A stretch of 32,000 nucleotides of DNA, taken from an uncultured Alphaproteobacteria bacterium (lineage in GTDB: Bacteria; Pseudomonadota; Alphaproteobacteria; CAVTAV01). The notes under the pieces were generated by a model, which made no database searches, was not told the origin of the DNA, and saw only the letters and a list, made by a program, of their open reading frames with translations. Positions 1,151-10,384 of this stretch are shown one piece after another (the first letter of the stretch is position 1; the number at the start of each line of letters is the position of its first letter). The position numbers were made by a program, and so were the translations under genes. The stretch is taken from assembly GCA_963822835.1 (NCBI GenBank), contig CAWGIZ010000001.1:1-32000 (forward strand). The letters run 5' to 3'.

Positions 1151-2317
1151 TTAGGCCTGGATCAAATTCGAAAATTGATCGCCCTGCACTTGGGTGCTTG
1201 CAGCCTTCCGACCTATTTCCAACAGCTCTTCCACGGTCTCCGGGCTGTCGATTTGCGCGAGCCGGGCGACTCCCTTGGGAGGCAGGTCGAGACCAAGATA
1301 TTGCTTCAGCCAACGCAGGCTCAGTTCTACATTGTACCTTTGGTAGGTGAAGGCCAACCGCCCGTCAAAATTATCGTTGGCGAGATTACCAACCTCCGCG
1401 TCGATATGCCAAGGTGTCTTCGTTCGCGACATCCACTGCATCAAGGTCTGCACCAGGCCGTCGCTATCGGATAGCAGTGACTGAACGGCACTCAAAGCCA
1501 GACCGGCGCCGGTCGACGCCGACCAAGAACCGCTATCGAATGTCTGCTGATACTTTCCCGTGCCCACCGAGGTGATCGTCAGCTGATCGGCGCCGAATGG
1601 CCAGTTGAAGCCATAGCCGGAAATTCCGGCCAGCATGAGCATTAGCAAGGCCGGATTGTTGTGCGGACTTACGCCTCCATCCACGAAGGAACCTTCTACG
1701 CCCGGCGCGACCGCGATCACCTCGGGCTCAAAGTAGGTCGGGGCCGCCGTACTCGCGCGAATGAGGCTCGCCAGCGGAAGTTCCTTATTCGGTGTGTAGG
1801 ATGCGTCATTGCCGTCGAAGAATTTGCCTCGAGGATTATTGTGAAAGACCCAGACGCTGTTCGTATCCAGACGTTTGGTAACGATCGCGAGGCCAGTCCT
1901 CAGCTTTTCGGAACCAAGCAACTCCTCGCCAACTTGTTGTCTGACGGCTTGCATCAAAGGTTCAGCAGGAAACTTTGGCGCCAACAGCCCATAGAACCAG
2001 AACCAGTTTCGATCGCCGAAAGCGAGGGCAGAAAGTTCCCGATAGATCGTGATGAGTTCCGAGACGGAGTAGCCGAGAGCAAGCCCCGTCGCGATGATCG
2101 AGCCTGTGGATGTTCCACCAATCAGGTCGTAATAGTCGCTCAATCGAAGGTCAGGCTGGTCGAACTCCTTCGCCAGCAGTGCCTCAATCCGTTCCAAGAA
2201 GGCGAGTGAAATGATTCCTCTCACGCCCCCACCATCAAGTGCCAATATTCGCTTGGGGCCAGATCCAAAGAGGTGATGTTCGAGCGAAGGGTTGGCCATT
2301 GTCGGACTCCCGTTCAT
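1151..2317 (-). CDS. Patatin-like phospholipase (CapV-like candidate effector)
   Basis: All three catalytic signatures are present: the oxyanion hole ILALDGGGVRG, the nucleophile elbow GGTSTGS (GxSxG), and the catalytic Asp in FVDGGV. The ATG at 2317-2315 overlaps the upstream TGA (2316-2314) as ATGA, which suggests translational coupling. Alternative starts are 2347 (longest ORF) and 2299 (preceded by GGGAG). Confidence 0.85.
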   Translation of the reverse strand: MNGSPTMANPSLEHHLFGSGPKRILALDGGGVRGIISLAFLERIEALLAKEFDQPDLRLSDYYDLIGGTSTGSIIATGLALGYSVSELITIYRELSALAFGDRNWFWFYGLLAPKFPAEPLMQAVRQQVGEELLGSEKLRTGLAIVTKRLDTNSVWVFHNNPRGKFFDGNDASYTPNKELPLASLIRASTAAPTYFEPEVIAVAPGVEGSFVDGGVSPHNNPALLMLMLAGISGYGFNWPFGADQLTITSVGTGKYQQTFDSGSWSASTGAGLALSAVQSLLSDSDGLVQTLMQWMSRTKTPWHIDAEVGNLANDNFDGRLAFTYQRYNVELSLRWLKQYLGLDLPPKGVARLAQIDSPETVEELLEIGRKAASTQVQGDQFSNLIQA

Positions 2318-4854
2318 AAACCCGGAGGGTTCTCCATATCCGCCCATCCGCGAGACGACAAAGTGACCGCTTGGCCTGAAGATGGGTCAATCTGAATAGT
2401 CACGGCCTCCCGTTCGCCAGCCCAACTACCAAGAGTTCCGTTCTCACAGAGATCTTGTCTCAACACCAAAGTATCGCTGGTTCCTCCCGTCAGACGCGGC
2501 CCACCGGAGCGACACGCGGCTATCAGATACGTCGCTCGGCGAGCGATGTAGTCTGCGGCTTTCGCGTAGCCGCTCTGACGGTTTTTATTGTCATCGTAAT
2601 TGAGGTTCGGATCGGTCAAATCGATAACCCAACCGGAAAGGCGCTGCACAGCCTTCTTCTGATTAGTCCATGTATTCCATCGAGAAGCAGATATCTCCCT
2701 TCGGACGGTCTTGCTACTCGATTGCTCGCTGGACCAGAGCGCGCCGGCGGCAGACGCTCCGCCATCCCAAGAGTAGCCCTCTTTAAAATGAGGTTCGTAG
2801 TCGTCGAGCATGAACGACTCCGGCACTCCCTCGACGCCGAGCAACCGATGCATCTTTTTTTCCCGTTCCAGGTAATCAAGCGCGGCCTGAGTCATAACGT
2901 AATCGGAGCCAGGGGCCAGCGGCGAGACAAGCGTGTAACACGCGTTCGGAAAACGCGCGCAGATCTTGGAAAGTACGTCCGTAGCGACGCAGTATGCAAT
3001 CCTCTCTGCTTCCTTCAGCCTGATCGCGTTATGGCCGATCAGACCGATCCAGATGTCACGGCGAATGACGTTTCGATCTGACGTCGTGTCATCACGCCGA
3101 TCGAGGATCTTGTCGTCCAGCAATTCGATCTGCTGAAAGTCATAGTCCTGAGCCGTCTTATCGAGTTTGTCGAAGCCCACGAGGTTATCGTGTATCCGCC
3201 GTTCATTATTACGTTTTGCGCCCGGCAGCCATCTCCAACCATCGATGCGCCGGTCAGCGCACCAGGACTTGTGCTCCAGGCGCGCCAACTGCTCCATTGC
3301 TGTCTTAAAATCGCGAATATGAGCGGCCGCCGCTGCCTTCAGCGAGAAGCCCGGTGGCACGTACCAATCGAGACTGGCCAGTTTCGGCTTGATGTGGTCC
3401 GCAGCGCGCCTGTTTGCCTGTCGGTAGGTCTCCGGCAAGTCGTCCCAGGACTGCGCACTCTCGGCTCTCTCCTGAGATACGGTGCTCTTGAACTCCGCCG
3501 ACCGGGCCGCCTGGTAGGAGTCGTGAATATTTTTGGCGATCCCTTCCAGCGGACCTTCGAGCAGATCGAGAGTGCAGAGTTCGGCGACTGTTCCGAAGGG
3601 TGCAATGATCGATGAGAAATAGGGCGTGAGATCGTCGCGGCAAATGATCCCGAGATCTCCGCTAAGCGATCCGGCGCGAATATAGACGGGTGCCTTCCAT
3701 CGCCCATTGATCTGCATGGCATCGCGAACCCTCAATGCATGCTGAAGCGTTGCGCTGGAACTATCGGCCGTGACTATCACCGCGGTAACAGCGTGTTCAC
3801 CTTCGATGTCCGCCATCACCTTGTCGGTGAGGCTGTTGATCGCGGTGTCGAATTCGAGAAAGCGAACCGTGCCCAATCGGCCAAGCCCCGGGTACGCCAC
3901 ATCGATGTCAGGGTGGATACGGCGAAATCGCTGCTCGTCGTGAGCAGCGTCAGGCACCAGCACGGTCATGCGCGGCGCGGCGAAGTCCTTGTATATCCCG
4001 ACTCGCATGAGCTGAGCGGCGACGTTAATTGCGTAGTCGTCGAAACCCACGACGACCAGATGGATGAGTCGCTGGCCGCGCAAGTCCGCTACGGTATAGA
4101 GCGGGTGGTCCCAGAAGAACTTTCTCGCGGCCAGAGCGGGCAGGCTGAAGGGGATCAGATCCGTACCGTTCTCTCGCCGCTTGACACCATCGGAACTCGA
4201 GAGCTTGCGCCAGAGCTCGGCGTCCCTGACCGACACGAAGACTTTGCGTGCGGTCGAACGCTGGTGATCCTTGCATATCGAACGGATGGCGAGCGCCGCC
4301 TCAAGATTAGCGTTGTCGTCGTCGGTTACAATGACGGCGCCTTTCGCCTTTTCGACTGCCGCGGAGTGGAGCACCTTGGCATTCCGGCAGTCGCCAGCCA
4401 CGAATGGCACTTTGTGCCGCCGGCAAAATGCAGCGAGCGCGTCATTGCCCGCACTGTCGATGGCAACGACCGCATGCCCGCCCGCCACGAGACTGTCGAC
4501 GAACGCCTTGCCTCGCTCACCCAGACCGCAGACGATGTAGTGATCTTTCTGGCGGCTGGCCCTCCAACCTTCAATCCGGCTTCCCAGAAATTCAAGGACG
4601 ACGCCAAGAACGGCCGAGAGCGTTGCGAGCGGGGCAATGACAAGGCCCAGCTTCAGGAAGAAATTGGCCGACGAGTAATCGCCGCCGGGACGATCGAGCT
4701 TGTAGGCGAGATACGTGCGATAGAGGATCTCAAGCCAGTCGACTTTTTCGGGTTGCGCGAGGGCAATGTACCAGCCGACGAACGTCAGAACGCCACCGGC
4801 AATCGCCAGAGTAGCGACGGCCAAAATTAAAACGCGCTTGGTGGAGGACGGCAT
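2314..4854 (-). CDS. Membrane protein: 2 TM helices + TrkA_N/RCK-type NAD-binding Rossmann domain(s) + two RyR-type repeats + C-terminal SLOG/YpsA/DprA-like domain
   Basis: 846-aa ORF. TM helices: VLILAVATLAIAGGVLTFVGWYIAL and FFLKLGLVIAPLATLSAVLGVVLEFL. GxGxxG motif IVCGLGERGKAF followed by the acidic VVAIDS, then a second degenerate Rossmann (IHLVVVGFDDYA). RyR-like repeats: IAKNIHDSYQ...SWDDLPETYRQANRRAADHIKPKL and LARLEHKSWCADRRIDGWRW...RIHDNLVGFDKLDKTAQDYD. The C-terminal ~250 aa carry SLOG-type motifs: IGLIGHN, LVSPLAPGSDYV, TGGTSDTL. Confidence 0.7.
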   Translation of the reverse strand: MPSSTKRVLILAVATLAIAGGVLTFVGWYIALAQPEKVDWLEILYRTYLAYKLDRPGGDYSSANFFLKLGLVIAPLATLSAVLGVVLEFLGSRIEGWRASRQKDHYIVCGLGERGKAFVDSLVAGGHAVVAIDSAGNDALAAFCRRHKVPFVAGDCRNAKVLHSAAVEKAKGAVIVTDDDNANLEAALAIRSICKDHQRSTARKVFVSVRDAELWRKLSSSDGVKRRENGTDLIPFSLPALAARKFFWDHPLYTVADLRGQRLIHLVVVGFDDYAINVAAQLMRVGIYKDFAAPRMTVLVPDAAHDEQRFRRIHPDIDVAYPGLGRLGTVRFLEFDTAINSLTDKVMADIEGEHAVTAVIVTADSSSATLQHALRVRDAMQINGRWKAPVYIRAGSLSGDLGIICRDDLTPYFSSIIAPFGTVAELCTLDLLEGPLEGIAKNIHDSYQAARSAEFKSTVSQERAESAQSWDDLPETYRQANRRAADHIKPKLASLDWYVPPGFSLKAAAAAHIRDFKTAMEQLARLEHKSWCADRRIDGWRWLPGAKRNNERRIHDNLVGFDKLDKTAQDYDFQQIELLDDKILDRRDDTTSDRNVIRRDIWIGLIGHNAIRLKEAERIAYCVATDVLSKICARFPNACYTLVSPLAPGSDYVMTQAALDYLEREKKMHRLLGVEGVPESFMLDDYEPHFKEGYSWDGGASAAGALWSSEQSSSKTVRREISASRWNTWTNQKKAVQRLSGWVIDLTDPNLNYDDNKNRQSGYAKAADYIARRATYLIAACRSGGPRLTGGTSDTLVLRQDLCENGTLGSWAGEREAVTIQIDPSSGQAVTLSSRGWADMENPPGL

Positions 4855-4918
4855 CTGAGACTACCAACGGGGTGGAATGGAGCGACCAAACGATGACGCA
4901 GTCTCCATCACAAGAGAC

Positions 4919-5545
4919 TCACTGGATCTTGGAGATCAGTGGAAGATTTCCCGAAGCGCCGCAGCCGAAAGAACCGGACATCGTTTTCGAATCCGCAATC
5001 ATCAGTCGCAGATCGCAGTTACTGGCTTTGATAATGAGGCCACCCGGCACGAATTGGCCGTAATTCCATCCGTTATAGGAACTGTTTGTCTTGATCTCGC
5101 CGTTGTCAGAGATTTCGATACGGTTCAGCAAGATGCTAGGGGCAACCCTCTCGAACAGTTTTTTCTGTGCATCGGTTGGCCGGTCGGGGAGCTCCACTTC
5201 CGCAACGATGCTCGTCCGGGACTTCAGCCACATTTTGAGCGCGGCAGACTGCATGTCCTTGTCGCTGCTGCCGAACCCTTCCTCTAGGGAAATTCGTCGG
5301 ACGATGTCGTCATCGCTTGCCAGCCCGGCCTCCAGAGCTGCGAGCCGCTCGATGGGATCGTCGCTTCGCAAGAGATCACGAAAGGATTTCAGCTCGGCCG
5401 CCCGCTCGGTTATCGCCTTCGCGGTCGACTGAGCATGTACTGATGGCGCGTCCTGGCAAACCGCGACGAAGAGCACCGCAACCGTCACGCCGGCAATCCC
5501 AAAGATTCGCTTATTCAAAGCCTTCATGACCCACCTTCCCATCAT
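4919..5545 (-). CDS. Secreted/periplasmic protein of unknown function (signal peptide, HEAT-like helical repeats, Cys-containing beta-rich C-terminus)
   Basis: The ORF begins 9 nt downstream of the TIR gene stop. The likely true start is the ATG at 5527, preceded by GGAAGGTGGG. Signal peptide: MKALNKRIFGIAGVTVAVLFVAVCQDAPSVHAQ. Repeats resemble DDPIERLAALEAGLASDDDIVRRISL. I recognise no known family. Confidence 0.6.
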   Translation of the reverse strand: MMGRWVMKALNKRIFGIAGVTVAVLFVAVCQDAPSVHAQSTAKAITERAAELKSFRDLLRSDDPIERLAALEAGLASDDDIVRRISLEEGFGSSDKDMQSAALKMWLKSRTSIVAEVELPDRPTDAQKKLFERVAPSILLNRIEISDNGEIKTNSSYNGWNYGQFVPGGLIIKASNCDLRLMIADSKTMSGSFGCGASGNLPLISKIQ

Positions 5546-5554
5546 GTGCCGGCG

Positions 5555-6538
5555 TCAGAACGGCCGCGTCGCATCTTTCGGCAAATATCCGATGCGTCCG
5601 TCATCCAGATGTACTTTCGTCCATAGGCTACTGTTGAAGTCTTCGACCTTGACGATATCGCCGGCCCTTAATCGGGCAATCGTGTTTGATATCGCTGACG
5701 GCAAATCCTGTACCGAGATATCGCGTTCAACCCGATGCGTGATGAGCGTGGCGGCATGTTGTGCCACTTGCGTTACCGCTTCTTGCTTCACGGGCGCCGC
5801 AGGTTTTGATTTGGAATAGGCAGGGGCATCGATGGCCAAGTCCTCGGGAGGCGAAGGTCGCGCGGGCTCGTCTTTGATAGCAGCCTGCTTCGAGATAGCG
5901 CTGGGCACTGCGGCGGCCGGCGTGGTTGTGCCTTCCGGCAGGGCTACCTTCGCCGGCACTGCTGGTACCGTTTCGGTCGCCACCTTTTCGACAGAACCGG
6001 ATCGTCCCATTACAAAGTAAGCGCCGGTGCCGCCAATACCCAGGAGCAGAACAAGTGCTGCCGCGTAGATCGGCCATTTCGAGCGATTTCCGCTCAGACG
6101 GATCGGCGGCGTGCGGACTGTGTCTTGACCATCGATCGTATCCGCCAAGTGATCGAGGTGATATTCCAGATCGCCTCGCCAAGTGTCGATCCAGTGGCTT
6201 GTGGAGATGAAGAGTTCGAGGCCGGGCGACGGCGCGACATCCTCGATGCGGACGGGGTAGACCGGCCGGCCCTTACTGTAGGCGCGCTCCACTTCCGCCT
6301 TTACGAAGCGCGATAGATTCAACTCCTTAGAAAGCAGGACGACGAGTGTCTTGGAGTTCTCGATACCGTGGACGATTTCTTCGGCATATTCATGGCCGGG
6401 CCGGACGTCCCGTGGGGCGACCCAGCACCTCAGCCCTTTTCGTTCCAGATGTTCGCAGACCGTATCTGCAAATCGGGCGTTCTCCTTGGCGTGACTTATG
6501 AACGCCGAGTAACGCCAGTCTTTGCCAGCCCCATCCAT
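5555..6538 (-). CDS. TIR domain - single TM - Pro/Ala-rich linker - SH3b domain protein
   Basis: N-terminal TIR_2-like sequence: YSAFISHAKENARFADTVCEHLERKGLRCWVAPRDVRPGHEYAEEIVHGIENSKTLVVLLSKELNLSRFVKAEVERAY. A Glu occupies the position of the catalytic glutamate motif (S..v.aEve.A). TM helix: WPIYAAALVLLLGIGGTGAYFVM. The C-terminus ARLRAGDIVKVEDFNSSLWTKVHLDDGRIGYLPKD is typical of bacterial SH3_3. Confidence 0.8.
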   Translation of the reverse strand: MDGAGKDWRYSAFISHAKENARFADTVCEHLERKGLRCWVAPRDVRPGHEYAEEIVHGIENSKTLVVLLSKELNLSRFVKAEVERAYSKGRPVYPVRIEDVAPSPGLELFISTSHWIDTWRGDLEYHLDHLADTIDGQDTVRTPPIRLSGNRSKWPIYAAALVLLLGIGGTGAYFVMGRSGSVEKVATETVPAVPAKVALPEGTTTPAAAVPSAISKQAAIKDEPARPSPPEDLAIDAPAYSKSKPAAPVKQEAVTQVAQHAATLITHRVERDISVQDLPSAISNTIARLRAGDIVKVEDFNSSLWTKVHLDDGRIGYLPKDATRPF

Positions 6539-6652
6539 GCCAAGTCCAACTAGCCGCTCTAGTTTGGCGAGAAACCCCTCGCTAAAAGTGTTACAAAGAC
6601 TCGTCTTTAGCGCAAGTTTATCAGCCCTGAGCGACGCAATATTCTGGGGATG

Positions 6653-7099
6653 TTACTTGTTCGGCAGATACAACCAGCCCCCGTCATTCCGAAGAAAGCG
6701 TCCCTGCCCCGTATTCCCCCCACCAGTCAGCTGCCGCAAGGCACCTTGCGCGAAAGGACTGTCCGAGGCAAAGCCCAGCACGAAGTCGCAGACATAGCCC
6801 GGTTGGCCTTCCGCCTTCTCACAACCGAGCTTTCTGAACTGAGTGATTTCGAATGACAGGCTGCACTTACCGCCGCCTGCACCACAGAGGGCAAGGCACT
6901 GCATCGCAAGTAAAGGGTCGTTATTGAATTCGCGGCGTTCGCACCGTTTCCCTAACTCCTGATAATTCGCGTTTACATTTGCAAAGGTCGCTTCGATCGC
7001 CTTCCTCATTTCCTTATCAGACGGCTCGCGATCGCCGGAGCCACATGCCGCGACACAAAGTATGGAGGCGATCATAAAGAAGGCGGATAGCGACTTCAT
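6653..7099 (-). CDS. Cys-rich lipoprotein of unknown function
   Basis: ATG at 7099 preceded by GAGGA. Signal peptide and lipobox: MKSLSAFFMIASILCVAAC|GSGD. The mature part contains 8 Cys (including the lipobox Cys). The longer 167-aa ORF (start 7156) has an unlikely basic leader. Confidence 0.6.
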   Translation of the reverse strand: MKSLSAFFMIASILCVAACGSGDREPSDKEMRKAIEATFANVNANYQELGKRCERREFNNDPLLAMQCLALCGAGGGKCSLSFEITQFRKLGCEKAEGQPGYVCDFVLGFASDSPFAQGALRQLTGGGNTGQGRFLRNDGGWLYLPNK

Positions 7100-7215
7100 T
7101 TCAGGATCCTCAGGCGTTATCTTTCGTCGTGTACCTGAGGGACGTTGCCCAGACAAAGCGTCCGACGCCTGGAAAAACTATCGGGACCAGCATCCCCCTT
7201 TAGTATCAACATAGC

Positions 7216-7242: not shown

Positions 7243-7672
7243 TACTCCAGAAGGACTTATTCTAAAAACAAGACCCAAGTGAAGTTAATGGCAAAGCCAA
7301 TCTATGGTTCAGTAGAACGCCTGAGTGTGCAGCCAAGGAGGTCGGCCAACTCAATAGTTTCCCACGGCGTTACTGCTCTGCCAGAACCGACTTCTAACAC
7401 TTCGGAAGGTCCTGCAATCATCCTGCCTCCTTGAAATGTTTGATTCCAGTTACCTTCGCTCCTTTTGTCTAATGGCAGTTTGGCGCCCTCGTCCCGAATA
7501 TTTGACGGTCGGTCCATGAATGCCGAGCGTATCGTTTCGCAAAGGTTTAATTCGCACTGGCTACTAAGACCGCTCCGGGCGGGAATTCCGGAAGCTATAT
7601 ATTACCGAGGCCGTTTCTCGCGTGGTGCCGCTCCGACCCCAGCCCCAGACAATCATGTGAAGGCGGTACGAA

Positions 7673-7696
7673 AGCCCCCGACCTGTGCCGGGGGCT
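7673..7696 (-). terminator. Probable intrinsic terminator of the G8/beta-helix gene
   Basis: Read on the minus strand: AGCCCCCG-gcacaggt-CGGGGGCT followed by TTTCGT. It has an 8-bp GC-rich stem and lies about 24 nt after the stop at 7720-7722. Confidence 0.55.
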
Positions 7697-7719
7697 CTTA
7701 CTCATAAGACAGGACCTGC

Positions 7720-10384
7720 TTACCGGCTGACCTGGACGCTGGTTCCGCCGGCACCAGGGCCGGCGATGCGGGCGCCTTCGCCGTTGGAGACAACCTTGAC
7801 CCAGAGCGCGTCCTTGCCCTTGTAGTACGAGGTGTCGCTGGCCTTGCGCAGCGCGTCCAGGCTGTCCTCCGGCGCCCCCGAGGCCGCAGTGGTGAATCCC
7901 GGCAGCTCGAAGATCACCCACGAGCCCTTTTCCATTTCGCTGAGGCGCAGGTCCACGGACGGCCGTTCTGTGCTCACCTTGACCTCGGTGCCGGCGCGTA
8001 CGTTCGTTTCCCCGGCCATGGTGAACTCCTTGCCATTGCGGCTGAGAACGACCGGCGGCTGAGGCGGGCCGCTGGGCCGGCCAAAAAATGGTATGCGGGG
8101 CCCGCCGCCACCCGCCGCTGGGCCAGGGCCGCGACCGGGACCAGCTGCCGCCGGGAGGGCGGCCGAAACCGGGGAACCCGCCGCCGGCGCCGGGAGTGTT
8201 CACAGCCAAGCGTCCGAAATCGCCCTTGCACACAGCGGCATTCCAGGTCGGCTTGACCTCACAGGTCTTGTCGATGGCGATTCCGTCATTTTCGTCATTG
8301 ATGAGAATGAAGGAGTCCGGGACACCGGTGACCGAGCCGTCCAGGTCGTGGAACACCGAGGTCTTATAGCTCCCATTGCCGTAATCGTCGTTGCTCCACT
8401 TGTGCTCCATCGGCGGGAAATACACGGGCTTGGCGTTGATGAATTTCGCGCGCTTCACCGTGTTGTTGGTGCTCATTCCGAAGCTGGTATACAGCAGGTA
8501 AGAGATTGCTCCCGTCTTGCGGGTGGCGTTGTCCTGGAAATTCACGAAGGTGTCGTTGTCCAGGTGATGAAGGTAATCGTAAAACTCGTAGCCGCGGATC
8601 GGGAAATCCGGGAGTCCGGGCTCCGGCAAGCTGCGGCCGTAAGCTTTTTCCGTCGGCGTTGTGGGGTTGCCGATATTGTCGCTCTCGCCCACGAAACGCG
8701 AGTCGACGACCCGTGACGTAAAGGGGGAGCGACCGAGGTTGCCCGACGCATGCGTATAGCCGATCGCGTTGTCGGCCAGCTTCAAGTTCTTGAATGTGTC
8801 CATTTCTCCGCGGGTCCACATTCCGCTGTTCCGGTTCTTGTAGCTGGTGAAATCCTCGATGACCGTCTCCACGATGGGGCTGTTCGCGTCAGCGGGATTG
8901 GCGAGAGCGATATGCCCGCCGGTCCTGAAATGGCCGTCGGGCTGAGGGCCACGATCGGACATGAAGCCGTCGAAGTTTGAATGGGCCGTGTTGCCCCTGA
9001 ACTCCCGCACCTGCATACGGCGTGGCCAGTAGTTGTCATCATGATGCAATCCCGTCGGATGCTGCGGCAAGGCGTACCAGAAGCCCGTCGCCTCGGACCC
9101 GGCGGCCACATTGTCCCGGTAGGTATTGTCCGGATTGGTGATCCAGAAGCTCGACGCCGTGTTGTCGGACGGAATCAGGATATCCTTGGCGTCCTGGCCG
9201 GCCAAATTGAAGTTCTTGCCGCCCTCCACGCCGAACGGGCCGAGGTCCGTTGGAACGCAGGGTTTGCCGTCGGGATGGCACTTGGTGAGGATCGCCAGGT
9301 TGTGGATAAACTGGTTGCCGTGCTCGACGGCGTCTTCGAGGAAGAAACAGTGACCCACATTGTTGTAGGTCACATTGTTTGCCACCAGCACGTCATTGGT
9401 GCCATGCACGGTCACGCAGCGGCTGTAGGTGTCGTGAATCGACGAGTTCTGGATATATTGCCCCTTGGCGTCGCCGATCAGATGCCAGTGGATGGGGTAG
9501 CGGGCCAGATGCATGTTCTGCCCCATGTGATAAAGCTCGACGCCGGAGACGTACATCTTGGACCCGGCCATCGCCATGATATGCCCGCCGAAATAGGTCT
9601 TTTCGGAGTCGGCTGAAGACTGGATCTTGATGTTCCGCGTCAGCATGCCGACTTCGCCGCGCTCGTCGACGCCATAGGTGATTTTGCCGAAATGCATGTA
9701 CTTCAACGGCTTGTCGAGGGTGAGCGCGTTTCCGTGAATGGCGGCGATGGTGCGCTCCTCCGCCTGGTGGGGATCGAAATCGGTTGACGCAAGAACGATC
9801 ACGTCACCCTTGCGCCAGCCGGCGGCATTCAGGACTTTGATCTTGGAACTGCCGGCCTTGGCCGTGCTCGCGAGCTTGGTCCAGCTGTTCGTGCGGTCGC
9901 CGTGCAGGTTCAACGTCCCGAGCAGCAACATGATCCCGCGGTCCCCCATGGTATTGATGTCTTCGTTGGGGACGTTGTCGGTCAGGGTGATTGTCGCCTT
10001 GTGCGTGTAAGGCTTGGCTTCGCTGCCGATGTCCAGCTCGCCGCCCGCCACATAGATCCACTCCGTTGCCAGATCGAGATCGCGATCGTCGGAGAAGCTG
10101 AGCTTGCCGTTGATCGTCAGACTGCGCAGCGCCGGCGGACTGACGTCGAGAACAATGTCCTTGCCCCGGTCAATCGTCACCGCGTCTCCCGCGCCCGGCA
10201 CCTTCCCGTCGGGCCAGGACGCCGGATCGGACCACCGCGACCACGTGACCGCCGAAGAGGGTGCCTGGGCGGGCATGTCCATATGGGCGTGGTCTTCCTG
10301 AGCATCGGCGGCAGCCCCCAGGCCGAGCAGGAAGGCCGCAGGAAGCAACAAGGCAAGTAGAGCCAGGCGAGATTGTTTGTGCAT
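7720..10384 (-). pseudogene. Secreted G8-domain / right-handed beta-helix (PbH1) protein, interrupted by a 1-nt frameshift in a Gly/Pro-rich linker (pseudogene or sequencing indel)
   Basis: Signal peptide: MHKQSRLALLALLLPAAFLLGLGAAADA. G8 signature: WSDPASWPDGKVPGAGDAVTIDRGKDIVLD...INGKLSF...VAGGELDIGSE. After ...DFGRLAVNTPGAGGGFPGFGRPPGG (about 8140-8155) the main frame turns into Arg/Gly/Pro junk. Another frame reads GPGRGPGPAAGGGGPRIPFFGRPSGPPQPPVVLSRNGKEFTMAGETNVRAGTEVKV... through ORF 7720..8019, which ends just before the terminator. Confidence 0.7.

Follow-up and report, generated by a model that had tools for sequence, protein, structure and literature searches.

Because it combines a build like that of a ligand-gated potassium channel with two sensor domains of the cyclic-ADP-ribose type (a RyR-like one and SLOG) and has a recurrent TIR neighbour, the 846-aa protein that is encoded at 2314..4854 on the reverse strand of the window (the whole analysed stretch of 32,000 nucleotides) is a strong candidate nucleotide-gated immune effector of a new kind. 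The boundaries of the ORF were found to be exactly these, and its product comprises a 2TM/pore-helix-like module, two RCK domains (RCK1 and RCK2), two RyR repeats and a SLOG-fold domain; all of the coordinates given below are also those of features on the reverse strand. This multi-domain architecture was confirmed to be real and beyond chance. The full-length AF2 model had a pLDDT of 83.7 and a pTM of 0.82, and a record identical to the protein exists on a 274-kb NCBI/ENA contig. The PADLOC models did not recognise the protein, and no ThsA model matched it. The TrkA_N and RyR calls, for which the initial annotation had allowed that they could fail significance, were both significant in Pfam, the first at residues 106-214 (E 5.8e-16; it scored 59 bits, with the cut-off at 23.8) and the second at residues 515-576 (E 4.4e-9; 36.9 bits, with the cut-off at 27.4).

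The membrane module begins with TM helix 1 (residues 3-32, 4759..4848; an AF2 helix), whose basic N-terminus would lie on the cytoplasmic side. It is followed by a short re-entrant, pore-helix-like helix (residues 40-51, 4702..4737) that was recognised from the AF2 model and from the family motif YRTxxLF, in which Y45 was kept in 31, T47 in 32, L50 in 38 and F51 in 40 of the 49 family members. The loop after it (residues 52-64) is variable across the family, and the TVGYG selectivity filter of K+ channels occurs nowhere in the family. The second TM helix and its linker into RCK1 form one AF2 helix (residues 65-100, 4555..4662), in which A70, R71 and P75 are kept in the family. The GxGxxG Rossmann motif that had been noted initially was borne out in RCK1 (TrkA_N; residues 102-250, 4105..4551), as G110 (47/49), G112 (37/49) and G/A115 (49/49; G115 in this protein) are present and mostly conserved, together with an acidic residue, D/E133 (36/49; D133 here). 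The single RCK domain that had been described was upheld, but not the count, since a second RCK-like Rossmann domain at residues 262-427 (3574..4071) had been missed. Its glycine motif is degenerate (VGFDDYA), but it matched RCK1 in hhalign (probability 96.7, P 4e-10; the shuffle maximum was 17.5), and its structural matches in Foldseek were the tandem-RCK proteins GsuK and TrkA.

In the full-length model, the N-terminal 430 residues superpose on the whole GsuK/MthK channel chassis, and the superposition takes in TM helix 2 and the linker. The matches to GsuK (4gx1, 4gx5 and 4gx0) had Foldseek E-values from 4e-9 to 1e-8 over 460-544 columns, and TrkA, Slo1 and MthK were also matched. As in GsuK, MthK and Slo, which are the best structural matches, TM1, a pore helix and TM2 precede the RCK domains (GsuK and Slo likewise have a pair of them in each chain), and the nucleotide motif of RCK1 is intact. 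Unlike these channels, the 846-aa protein lacks the filter and carries about 420 appended residues (the two RyR repeats and the SLOG domain), and its TM segment showed no sequence-profile similarity to MthK/KcsA (E 0.29). The two TM helices are therefore present as initially described, but not as a mere anchor, since the protein has the chassis of a GsuK/MthK-like pore with tandem RCK domains; on the structural model, the 2TM part appears to be a K-channel-derived module without a selectivity filter. Ion conduction may be put forward only with caution because there is neither a K+ selectivity filter nor TM sequence similarity to K+ channels; it is the fold and topology that suggest a pore function.

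The C-terminal domain (residues 596-833, 2356..3069) has a DprA/YpsA-like SLOG fold according to AF2, Foldseek and hhalign, even though the region gave no significant match in Pfam, NCBIfam, PADLOC or PDB sequences. Its AlphaFold model (pLDDT 90.2, pTM 0.89) matched viral DprA-like, YpsA-related (YAcAr) SLOG and LOG-like Rossmann proteins in BFVD, with a best Foldseek E-value of 2.6e-6 and an E-value of 3e-5 (TM 0.74) for a DprA-like protein, and so the SLOG-like C-terminus proposed earlier was not replaced by an unrelated fold. The family profile also aligned motif-for-motif with a DprA alignment in hhalign (P 0.0015, score 28.8; maximum 18.6 in 40 shuffles). The domain retains the glycine-rich loops, and its motifs are IGLIGHN, SPLAPGSD, HRLLGVEGVP and GGTSD (790-794). 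Like the ADPR-gated TRPM2 (SLOG/MHR1-2 and NUDT9H), the protein has a SLOG-fold domain that is fused to a cation-channel chassis, but in TRPM2 the pore is of the 6TM TRP type and the SLOG domain is N-terminal, and the two fusions are probably independent. TRPM4, TRPM5 and TRPM8 were among the weak PDB fold matches (probability 0.66-0.80), which were not significant (E > 1e-3).

The gene lies in a cassette that consists of a TIR-TM-sensor gene, a gene for a small secreted protein, the channel-like gene and a patatin lipase gene, surrounded by metabolic genes with no obvious defence island. The TIR protein (327 aa, 5555..6538) has a TIR_2 domain at residues 13-123 (Pfam 9.5e-23) with Glu82 as the candidate catalytic residue, one TM helix at 155-178 and, in its C-terminal part, a region that weakly matches SH3_3 (280-321). 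Its link to the 846-aa protein is real, but it is one gene away rather than next to it as had been stated; between the two lies the gene for a 208-aa protein with a signal peptide (4919..5545), which the related loci do not share. An adjacent membrane-anchored TIR gene was found in 8 of the 13 SLOG-bearing (long-form) loci, i.e., the window, L002, L008, L009, L013, L014, L015 (two copies) and L016, compared with none of the eight SLOG-less relatives (Fisher P 0.007), a soft statistic given the small number of loci and the relatedness of some of them. The catalytic Glu column was kept in all nine partner TIRs. STAND NTPases also recur as neighbours, and no TIR gene was found in the well-covered flanks of L007 and L001.

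The patatin-like phospholipase (1151..2347) was assigned using Pfam (Patatin, 1.6e-27), PADLOC (phospholipase effector, 2e-45), NCBIfam and its motifs, GGGVRG at residue 39, GTSTG at residue 78 and FVDGGV with the catalytic Asp in the ORF translation. It resembles CapV of CBASS in its intact GGGxRG, GxSxG and DGG motifs and in its best matches, which are CBASS/anti-phage phospholipases. In contrast to CBASS, it falls below the cut-off of the NCBIfam CBASS_lipase model (8.6e-32, 110.6 against 200 bits), there is no CD-NTase and the partner is a TIR protein. The likely start codon (ATG, 2317-2315) forms an ATGA overlap with the stop codon at the 3' end of the 846-aa gene, and the patatin gene is predicted to be translationally coupled to it. 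A patatin homologue adjoins the gene in six loci (L001, L008, L017, L018, L019 and the window), some of them with short forms, and the full patatin-channel-TIR trio is repeated in L008. This recurrence, the coupling and the fact that CapV-like patatins, by their NCBIfam/PADLOC names, are established nucleotide-activated effectors would suit a membrane-tethered sensor or adaptor: once the signal had bound to its RyR/SLOG/RCK ring, the patatin lipase would be activated or recruited and would do the killing, with the degenerate 2TM part serving only to anchor and oligomerise the protein; the lost selectivity filter and a TM part without a K-channel sequence signal also agree with this. We regard this as unlikely, though it deserves attention. 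Six TIR-linked loci (L002, L009, L013, L014, L015 and L016) have no patatin homologue in the available flanking sequence, and therefore a protein of the 846-aa type must suffice as the effector there. Moreover, the YRTxxLF motif together with A70, R71 and P75 is conserved beyond the needs of an anchor.

Both of the RyR repeats that had been proposed were recovered, the second using Pfam and the first using hhalign. Repeat 1 (residues 432-500, 3355..3561; 'IHDSY...SWDDLPETYRQANRRAADHI') is divergent and has no Pfam call, but its family profile matched that of repeat 2 (P 3.3e-5, score 27.6; maximum 15.9 in 30 column shuffles), and its H444, Y447, W470, N481 and R482 are invariant across the family. 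Repeat 2 (residues 512-590, 3085..3321) carries H528, W531, H555 and D572, which vary little or not at all in the family and which align with H75, W78, H100 and D117 of RyDEP (alignment to DyoEdafos gp78). The spacing of this tetrad equals that of the phage RyR proteins in other family members, and also here once a two-residue insertion that is unique to the 846-aa protein is discounted. For RyDEP, a glycosidase, and its homologues, either nanomolar binding or cleavage of 2'/3'cADPR was shown (PMC13232231), and RyR Tad binds 3'cADPR with a KD of 43 nM via the same four residues (10.64898/2026.06.04.730250). The earlier view of RyR-type domains as readers of cADPR-type ligands thus has direct experimental backing, which comes from two 2026 preprints on phage proteins that are not members of this family. 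Repeat 2, by sequence, appears to keep the full tetrad of the phage 2'/3'cADPR site and is a candidate ligand site. RyDEP, RyR Tad and the animal RyR Repeat12 belong to the same Pfam family (PF02026), and, as in the animal R12, two repeats occur in one chain, joined to a channel-like protein. Unlike RyDEP and RyR Tad, the RyR module here is encoded by the host as part of a membrane effector, and only repeat 2 has the full tetrad; a fusion of this kind presumably serves as a receptor, and not to sequester or degrade the ligand. The RyR domain was also found in the TIR-less short forms, so the TIR signal is not necessarily sensed by RyR.

The conserved RyDEP catalytic dyad (H75 and D117, here H528 and D572) could also mean that the RyR module is itself an enzyme that hydrolyses 2'/3'cADPR to linear ADPR and in this way either ends the signal or supplies the SLOG or RCK1 site with ADPR. 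We give this a small chance: the same residues are kept in binding-only RyDEP homologues and in animal RyR R12 domains, and therefore conservation of the dyad does not predict catalysis, while repeat 1 has no counterpart of the His or the Asp (nothing aligns with H100, and N481 stands in place of D117).

The chance is slimmer that the TIR or DUF4062-like partner is an NADase effector and that RCK1, the Rossmann domain that the initial annotation had also considered as a sensor of NAD depletion, tracks NAD(H)/ADP as in GsuK or TrkA, with the state of the channel shifting as NAD+ falls. RCK1 retains GxGxxG and the acidic ribose-binding residue, the PDB titles 4gx2 and 4gx1 place NAD and ADP in the RCK domains of GsuK, and in L001 a DUF4062-nSTAND1 protein takes the place of the TIR protein; DUF4062 was reported to act as a TIR-like, ADPR-producing NADase (10.64898/2026.05.01.722283). 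However, the DUF4062 match was below the threshold (E 0.0028), and such sensing leaves the appended RyR and SLOG domains, and the co-occurrence of SLOG with TIR, unexplained. That the protein is an ordinary nucleotide-regulated, Kch-like K+ channel for ion homeostasis with coincidental TIR and patatin neighbours is hardly credible, despite the fold matches to K+ channels and the JGI label of two relatives ('voltage-gated potassium channel Kch'), given the family-wide lack of TVGYG, the recurrence of TIR, patatin and STAND neighbours at divergent loci and ligand domains that are typical of conflict systems.

Among the known systems, a TIR protein with a SLOG effector defines type I Thoeris and a TIR protein with an 'ion channel' type X (10.64898/2025.12.03.692087). 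In type I (ThsB TIR and ThsA SIR2-SLOG), the TIR gene adjoins that of the effector, and the cADPR isomer that the TIR protein makes is read by the SLOG domain of the effector; similarly, the presence of SLOG here co-varies with that of TIR. The output module, however, is a channel-like membrane protein instead of a SIR2 NADase, the SLOG domain belongs to a DprA/YpsA-like family without a Pfam model, the TIR protein is membrane-anchored with a variable outer domain, and RyR and RCK domains are added. The pairing of a TIR gene with a predicted ion-channel effector is shared with type X (ThsK), where one system from Bacillus was shown to give defence (10.64898/2025.12.03.692087). Type X TIRs differ from the TIR here in being of the small soluble ThsB cluster common to Macro (type II) systems, and RyR, TrkA and SLOG are not mentioned for the type X effector in that paper and the tables on which the comparison is based.

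The reading of the locus as a prokaryotic form of cADPR/ADPR channel gating, which the initial annotation had put forward, is partly supported: the domain calls, the TIR link and the conserved RyR tetrad speak for it, and the absent K+ selectivity filter speaks against it. We consider the chances about even that the locus is a Thoeris-like TIR cassette not described before, with the 846-aa protein as its receptor/effector and an ADPR-derived signal that gates a membrane pore. The TIR protein would sense an envelope or infection cue via its variable extracytoplasmic domain and would turn NAD+ into the ADPR-derived signal, which would bind to the cytoplasmic ring at the SLOG domain, the RyR module or both. 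Binding would open the filter-less, probably non-selective pore through the RCK ring, and the loss of membrane potential would lead to abortive infection, in which the translationally coupled patatin lipase may act as a second membrane-directed effector.

From its sequence and predicted structure, the 846-aa protein encoded at 2314..4854 (-) of the window appears to combine an RCK-ringed, channel-like chassis with three modules that keep candidate nucleotide-binding features (RCK1, RyR repeat 2 and the SLOG domain), and its family is recurrently linked to membrane-anchored TIR proteins with a catalytic Glu and to patatin lipases. We put at about an even chance the reading that the protein is a receptor or effector of a TIR-type nucleotide signal and acts at the membrane. 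Translation of the ORF gave 846 aa, and an identical protein is recorded on a 274-kb NCBI/ENA contig. The gene belongs to a run of same-direction genes (6653..7156 through 1151..2347), which comprises a lipoprotein-like ORF of 167 aa (6653..7156, -), a TIR protein of 327 aa with a TIR_2 domain (5555..6538, -), a signal-peptide protein of 208 aa (4919..5545, -), the channel gene itself and a patatin-like phospholipase (1151..2347, -). The 208-aa protein, which is encoded between the TIR and channel genes, matched no family, and its homologue was absent from all 22 related loci. The TGA stop of the channel gene shares ATGA (2317-2314) with an ATG lying in the reading frame of the patatin; this overlap suggests that the two genes are translationally coupled and that the patatin starts at 2317 (Met11 of the listed ORF) rather than at 2347. 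The motifs GGGVRG and GTSTG of the patatin, together with FVDGGV read in the ORF translation, are intact, but against the CBASS CapV phospholipase model NF041079 it scored 110.6 bits, which is under the equivalog cut-off of 200. The G+C content of the cassette (1151-7156) was 0.572 vs. 0.614 in the remainder of the window (7157-32000), a difference that would fit horizontal acquisition. Neither a tRNA nor an obvious mobile-element gene lies near the cassette in the window, and scans of the cassette for promoters and terminators remained at chance level. Elsewhere in the window, the final ~230 residues of a 929-aa secreted-protein ORF (7595-10384, -) are Arg/Gly/Pro-rich and apparently out of frame, and an overlapping 99-aa ORF (7720-8019, -) looks like the true C-terminus of that protein; the ORF has probably been frameshifted, by pseudogene formation or by an assembly error.

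The gene neighbourhood was compared across 22 related loci from Alpha- and Gammaproteobacterial MAGs, which were searched with the neighbours of the window; the neighbouring ORFs were clustered and the recurrent ones were checked using Pfam and home-built HMMs. A TIR gene adjoined the SLOG-bearing homologues in eight of 13 loci, counting the window (the others being L002, L008, L009, L013, L014, L015, with one TIR gene per side, and L016), and none of the eight loci with short forms ending after the RyR repeats (Fisher P 0.007), although these statistics are soft, given the small number of loci and the relatedness of some of them. The TIR neighbour that the initial annotation had pointed out does recur, among the long forms only in these loci. 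In the SLOG-bearing loci that lacked a TIR, a patatin and a STAND protein stood in its place (L001), neither a TIR nor any other recurrent neighbour was found despite good flanks (L007), or the contigs were short or truncated (L003, L004 and L010). The trio of the window, patatin-channel-TIR, was found again in L008, with overlapping genes. Three of the eight short-form loci adjoin a patatin, and the two of them with enough sequence also have an nSTAND1-TPR gene. Such STAND NTPase genes lie by family members in L001 (11742-15578), L012 (3-4481), L017 (2945-5536) and L019 (2666-3979), and are accompanied by a patatin in L001, L017 and L019. The N-terminus of the complete protein, that of L001, gave a sub-threshold DUF4062 match (E 0.0028); DUF4062 was described as a TIR-like NADase in 2026 preprints (10.64898/2026.05.01.722283). 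A 282-aa ORF in L012 (11501-12346, -), directly after the short-form gene, matched the SLOG-domain profile (E 9e-10), which indicates that this domain also exists as a separate neighbouring gene. It seems unlikely that the 846-aa protein is an adaptor for the patatin.

All nine partner TIRs share one plan, in which an N-terminal TIR_2 domain is followed by a single TM helix and then by a variable C-terminal domain, and all nine keep the Glu column that contains the candidate catalytic Glu82 (VKAEVE) of the TIR in the window. The C-terminal domain gave a weak SH3_3 match in the window (5555-6538, -) and belonged to no recognised family in L002 (6505-7950), L008 (9448-11400) and L013 (4942-6327); it consists of YD-like 38-aa repeats in L014 (12361-15666) and L016 (1018-2931) and of TPR in both partners of L015 (6713-9835 and 13089-15167). 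The latter are a paralogous TIR-TM-TPR pair with near-identical N-terminal halves that flanks the channel gene on both sides. As TIR domains depend on NAD+ in the cytoplasm, the variable domain is expected beyond the membrane; this is an inverted Toll-like-receptor layout, and it would point to sensing outside the cytoplasm.

The initial annotation had proposed two RyR repeats, and both were upheld. Repeat 2 was called by Pfam (RyR, PF02026, residues 515-576, 36.9 bits vs. a cut-off of 27.4, E 4.4e-9), and in relatives the matches reached 1e-15 to 2e-17. Repeat 1 (432-500) was uncalled by Pfam, and its family profile aligned with that of repeat 2 (512-590) at P 3.3e-5 (hhalign score 27.6, maximum in 30 column shuffles 15.9), which by sequence points to a tandem pair like that of Repeat12 in animal RyRs. 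The phage RyR-domain proteins bind or destroy the cADPR signals of Thoeris (PMC13232231; 10.64898/2026.06.04.730250). In the phage protein RyDEP, the residues H75, W78, H100 and D117 touch the ligand (PMC13232231), and the RyR Tad of a Pectobacterium phage, which binds 3'cADPR (KD 43 nM), 2'cADPR and cADPR, relies for this on the corresponding His/Trp, His and Asp, as was reported in a June 2026 preprint (10.64898/2026.06.04.730250). In our alignment with RyDEP (DyoEdafos gp78), this tetrad corresponds to H528, W531, H555 and D572 of the 846-aa protein, with the same spacing once a two-residue insertion peculiar to the latter is discounted, and all four are invariant or nearly so across the family. 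Repeat 1 retains just the first His and an aromatic residue (H444 and Y447), with Asn in place of the Asp. Hence, judging by these residues, it is repeat 2 that keeps a candidate cADPR-type ligand site. A tblastn search of phages with the whole RyR region gave no match; the family consensus of repeat 2 matched 280 phage records, DyoEdafos gp78 among them. The module is a true PF02026 member with the ligand residues of the phage and animal RyR domains. Both studies left the role of RyR domains in cells open, and neither discussed membrane proteins with an RyR domain that are encoded by the host or linked to a TIR (PMC13232231; 10.64898/2026.06.04.730250). Phage precedents for signal destruction are in keeping with the RyR module being a glycosidase, which would be compatible with the receptor reading; the retained contacts are those of binding proteins as well, and we consider a glycosidase improbable.

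Neither in the 846-aa protein nor in 49 family members did the SLOG-like C-terminus give a significant match in Pfam, NCBIfam or PADLOC; one member each had a sub-threshold match to YpsA (0.015), YAcAr (0.028) and DprA (0.072), and the family profile matched no PDB sequence. Word-indexed homologue searches, whether with the domain alone or with its alignment, found next to nothing, and the family was delimited by searching 1.84 billion representative proteins exhaustively with HMMER, which yielded just 78 proteins at E <= 0.001. Nearly all of these are 770-916 aa long and have the domain in the same place at the C-terminus, which makes it almost exclusive to this architecture; the full build occurs in about 49 clusters at 50% identity. 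The AlphaFold model of the domain (pLDDT 90.2) gave weak Foldseek matches in the PDB, to a Moco carrier protein (probability 0.87) and the TRPM MHR1/2 region (0.66-0.80), none of them at E < 1e-3, and the list was crowded with chains of G-alpha/GPCR complexes. Among the predicted viral structures of BFVD, the top match had E 2.6e-6 and TM 0.67, and there followed a DprA-like phage protein (E 3e-5, TM 0.74), several "YspA cpYpsA-related SLOG" (YAcAr) proteins, a DUF2493 protein and a LOG-like Marseillevirus protein. The hhalign comparison of the family profile with the single E. coli Smf was too weak (E 0.031); with a five-sequence DprA alignment and shuffle controls, the profiles aligned across the whole core (score 28.8, P 0.0015, above 40/40 shuffles), pairing IGLIGhN with VGsR, TPLAPGSD with SGLAxGID and LIA...PGGT with vvV...SGs. 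G604 and G607, in the glycine-rich loop after beta-1, are (near-)invariant in the family, LAPGxD (646-651) is kept at at least 90%, and a GGTxE/D loop (GGT 790-792) follows the last core strand. Together, the BFVD matches and the DprA profile alignment confirm the SLOG-fold assignment that had been made from motifs. As the domain belongs to none of the named SLOG sequence families (Pfam YpsA, YAcAr, DprA, LOG, LSDAT and others), it is by sequence a separate, undescribed family inside the SLOG fold.

The TrkA_N Rossmann domain with its GxGxxG loop was also borne out; RCK1 matched PF02254 at residues 106-214 well above the curated cut-off (59.3 bits vs. 23.8, E 5.8e-16). The glycine loop (G110, G112 and G115) and the acidic residue that ends beta-2 (D133) are largely kept in 49 full-length relatives (G110 in 47, G112 in 37, G/A115 in all 49 and D/E133 in 36), so that the dinucleotide site looks intact. 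The single RCK domain of the initial annotation has to be corrected in number, as a second, RCK-like Rossmann domain (RCK2, residues 262-427; hhalign vs. RCK1 probability 96.7, P 4e-10), whose glycine loop is degenerate, lies between RCK1 and the RyR repeats. That the protein senses NAD depletion via RCK1 would agree with the dinucleotide site of that domain; set beside the covariation of SLOG and TIR, it is slightly less probable still than a glycosidase.

The full-length AlphaFold model (pLDDT 83.7, pTM 0.82) places TM1 at 3-32, a short helix at 40-51, a loop, and TM2 at 65-100 running directly into RCK1. Its best Foldseek match was GsuK (4gx1, 4gx5 and 4gx0; E 4e-9 to 1e-8, 535-544 columns for the full-length channel), with aligned columns that take in the TM part and both RCKs, followed by TrkA, Slo1 and MthK. 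The initial annotation had been right about the parts and the TIR link, and its "2TM anchor" gives way to a predicted pore-plus-RCK channel chassis. The build is like that of GsuK, MthK and Slo, but their selectivity filter is missing: a TVGYG-type motif was found neither in the 846-aa protein nor among the 49 members, whose loop is variable. The KLDRPGGDY of the window protein was rejected as a counterpart of TVGYGDY, the resemblance being limited to this protein and not kept by the family. It is the short helix that bears a conserved motif, YRTxxLF (49 members). The TM profile had no detectable sequence similarity to MthK+KcsA (hhalign E 0.29, in the wrong register), so that a K+ pore recognisable by sequence was rejected as well, and Ion_trans_2 of Pfam matched no family member examined. 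With a GsuK-like fold and topology but no filter or K-channel sequence signal, the protein either descends from channels of the RCK-gated build or has converged on that build; conduction of ions, of whichever kind, is a prediction. A housekeeping K+ channel, for all the GsuK-like fold, is highly improbable alongside the missing filter and the TIR linkage.

According to the receptor reading, the TIR protein would be the sensor and would make an ADPR-derived signal at the membrane, which would bind the SLOG and/or the RyR module. The RCK ring would relay binding to the TM helices, a non-selective pore would open and the membrane potential would collapse, while the coupled patatin would attack the membrane as a second effector. 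The covariation of the SLOG domain with the TIR suggests that, as in ThsA, SLOG reads the TIR signal. RyR accompanies all partner types and may read a second ligand (e.g., ADPR or cADPR) or process the signal. The more specific proposal of a prokaryotic ion channel gated by cADPR isomers, with the Repeat12-type RyR and SLOG as the sensor and the ligand supplied by a membrane-bound TIR receptor whose sensor domain is extracytoplasmic, is tentative.

Among the known systems, the cassette resembles Thoeris in its working, yet its effector escapes the PADLOC models, which did not match the 846-aa protein and gave only weak ThsB matches for the TIR of the window (at best about 1e-3). The accessible part of the December 2025 TIR survey (10.64898/2025.12.03.692087) includes the effectors "ion channel" (type X), "SLOG patatin" and "SLOG and 4TM", and an RyR or TrkA build is not among the effectors in that part; peptide strings of the window-type TIR family were not found among the Table S1 rows listed. 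The likeness to type X Thoeris is one of effector description (ThsK being an "ion channel"), and the type X TIRs are a small soluble ThsB cluster (2598792572), whereas the partners here are TM-anchored TIR_2 proteins. The type X "ion channel" was also sought through plasmid relatives of its TIR, all of which adjoin Macro effectors and are type II systems. TRPM2 follows a parallel logic of SLOG, cation channel and ADPR, and the two SLOG-channel fusions are probably independent.

The novelty lies in the effector/sensor combination, as TIR-nucleotide signalling itself is already known. RCK-RyR-SLOG would be an unlisted effector architecture in the TIR signalling repertoire; a new SLOG family is defined, together with a class of TIR proteins built like inverted Toll-like receptors, in which the TIR is cytoplasmic and one TM helix joins it to a variable outer sensor. 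A host-encoded RyR tandem with phage-type ligand residues, in a channel-like membrane protein that is genetically tied to a TIR, makes a cellular receptor role testable. If the reading is true, this would be the first host RyR domain that serves as an immune-signal receptor instead of a viral sponge, and a bacterial counterpart of the nucleotide-binding R12 module in animal RyRs, possibly even its evolutionary source. Such a TIR-linked receptor would come as a surprise to specialists, and the family would offer a tractable bacterial model in which the long-debated link between cADPR and the ryanodine receptor becomes testable.
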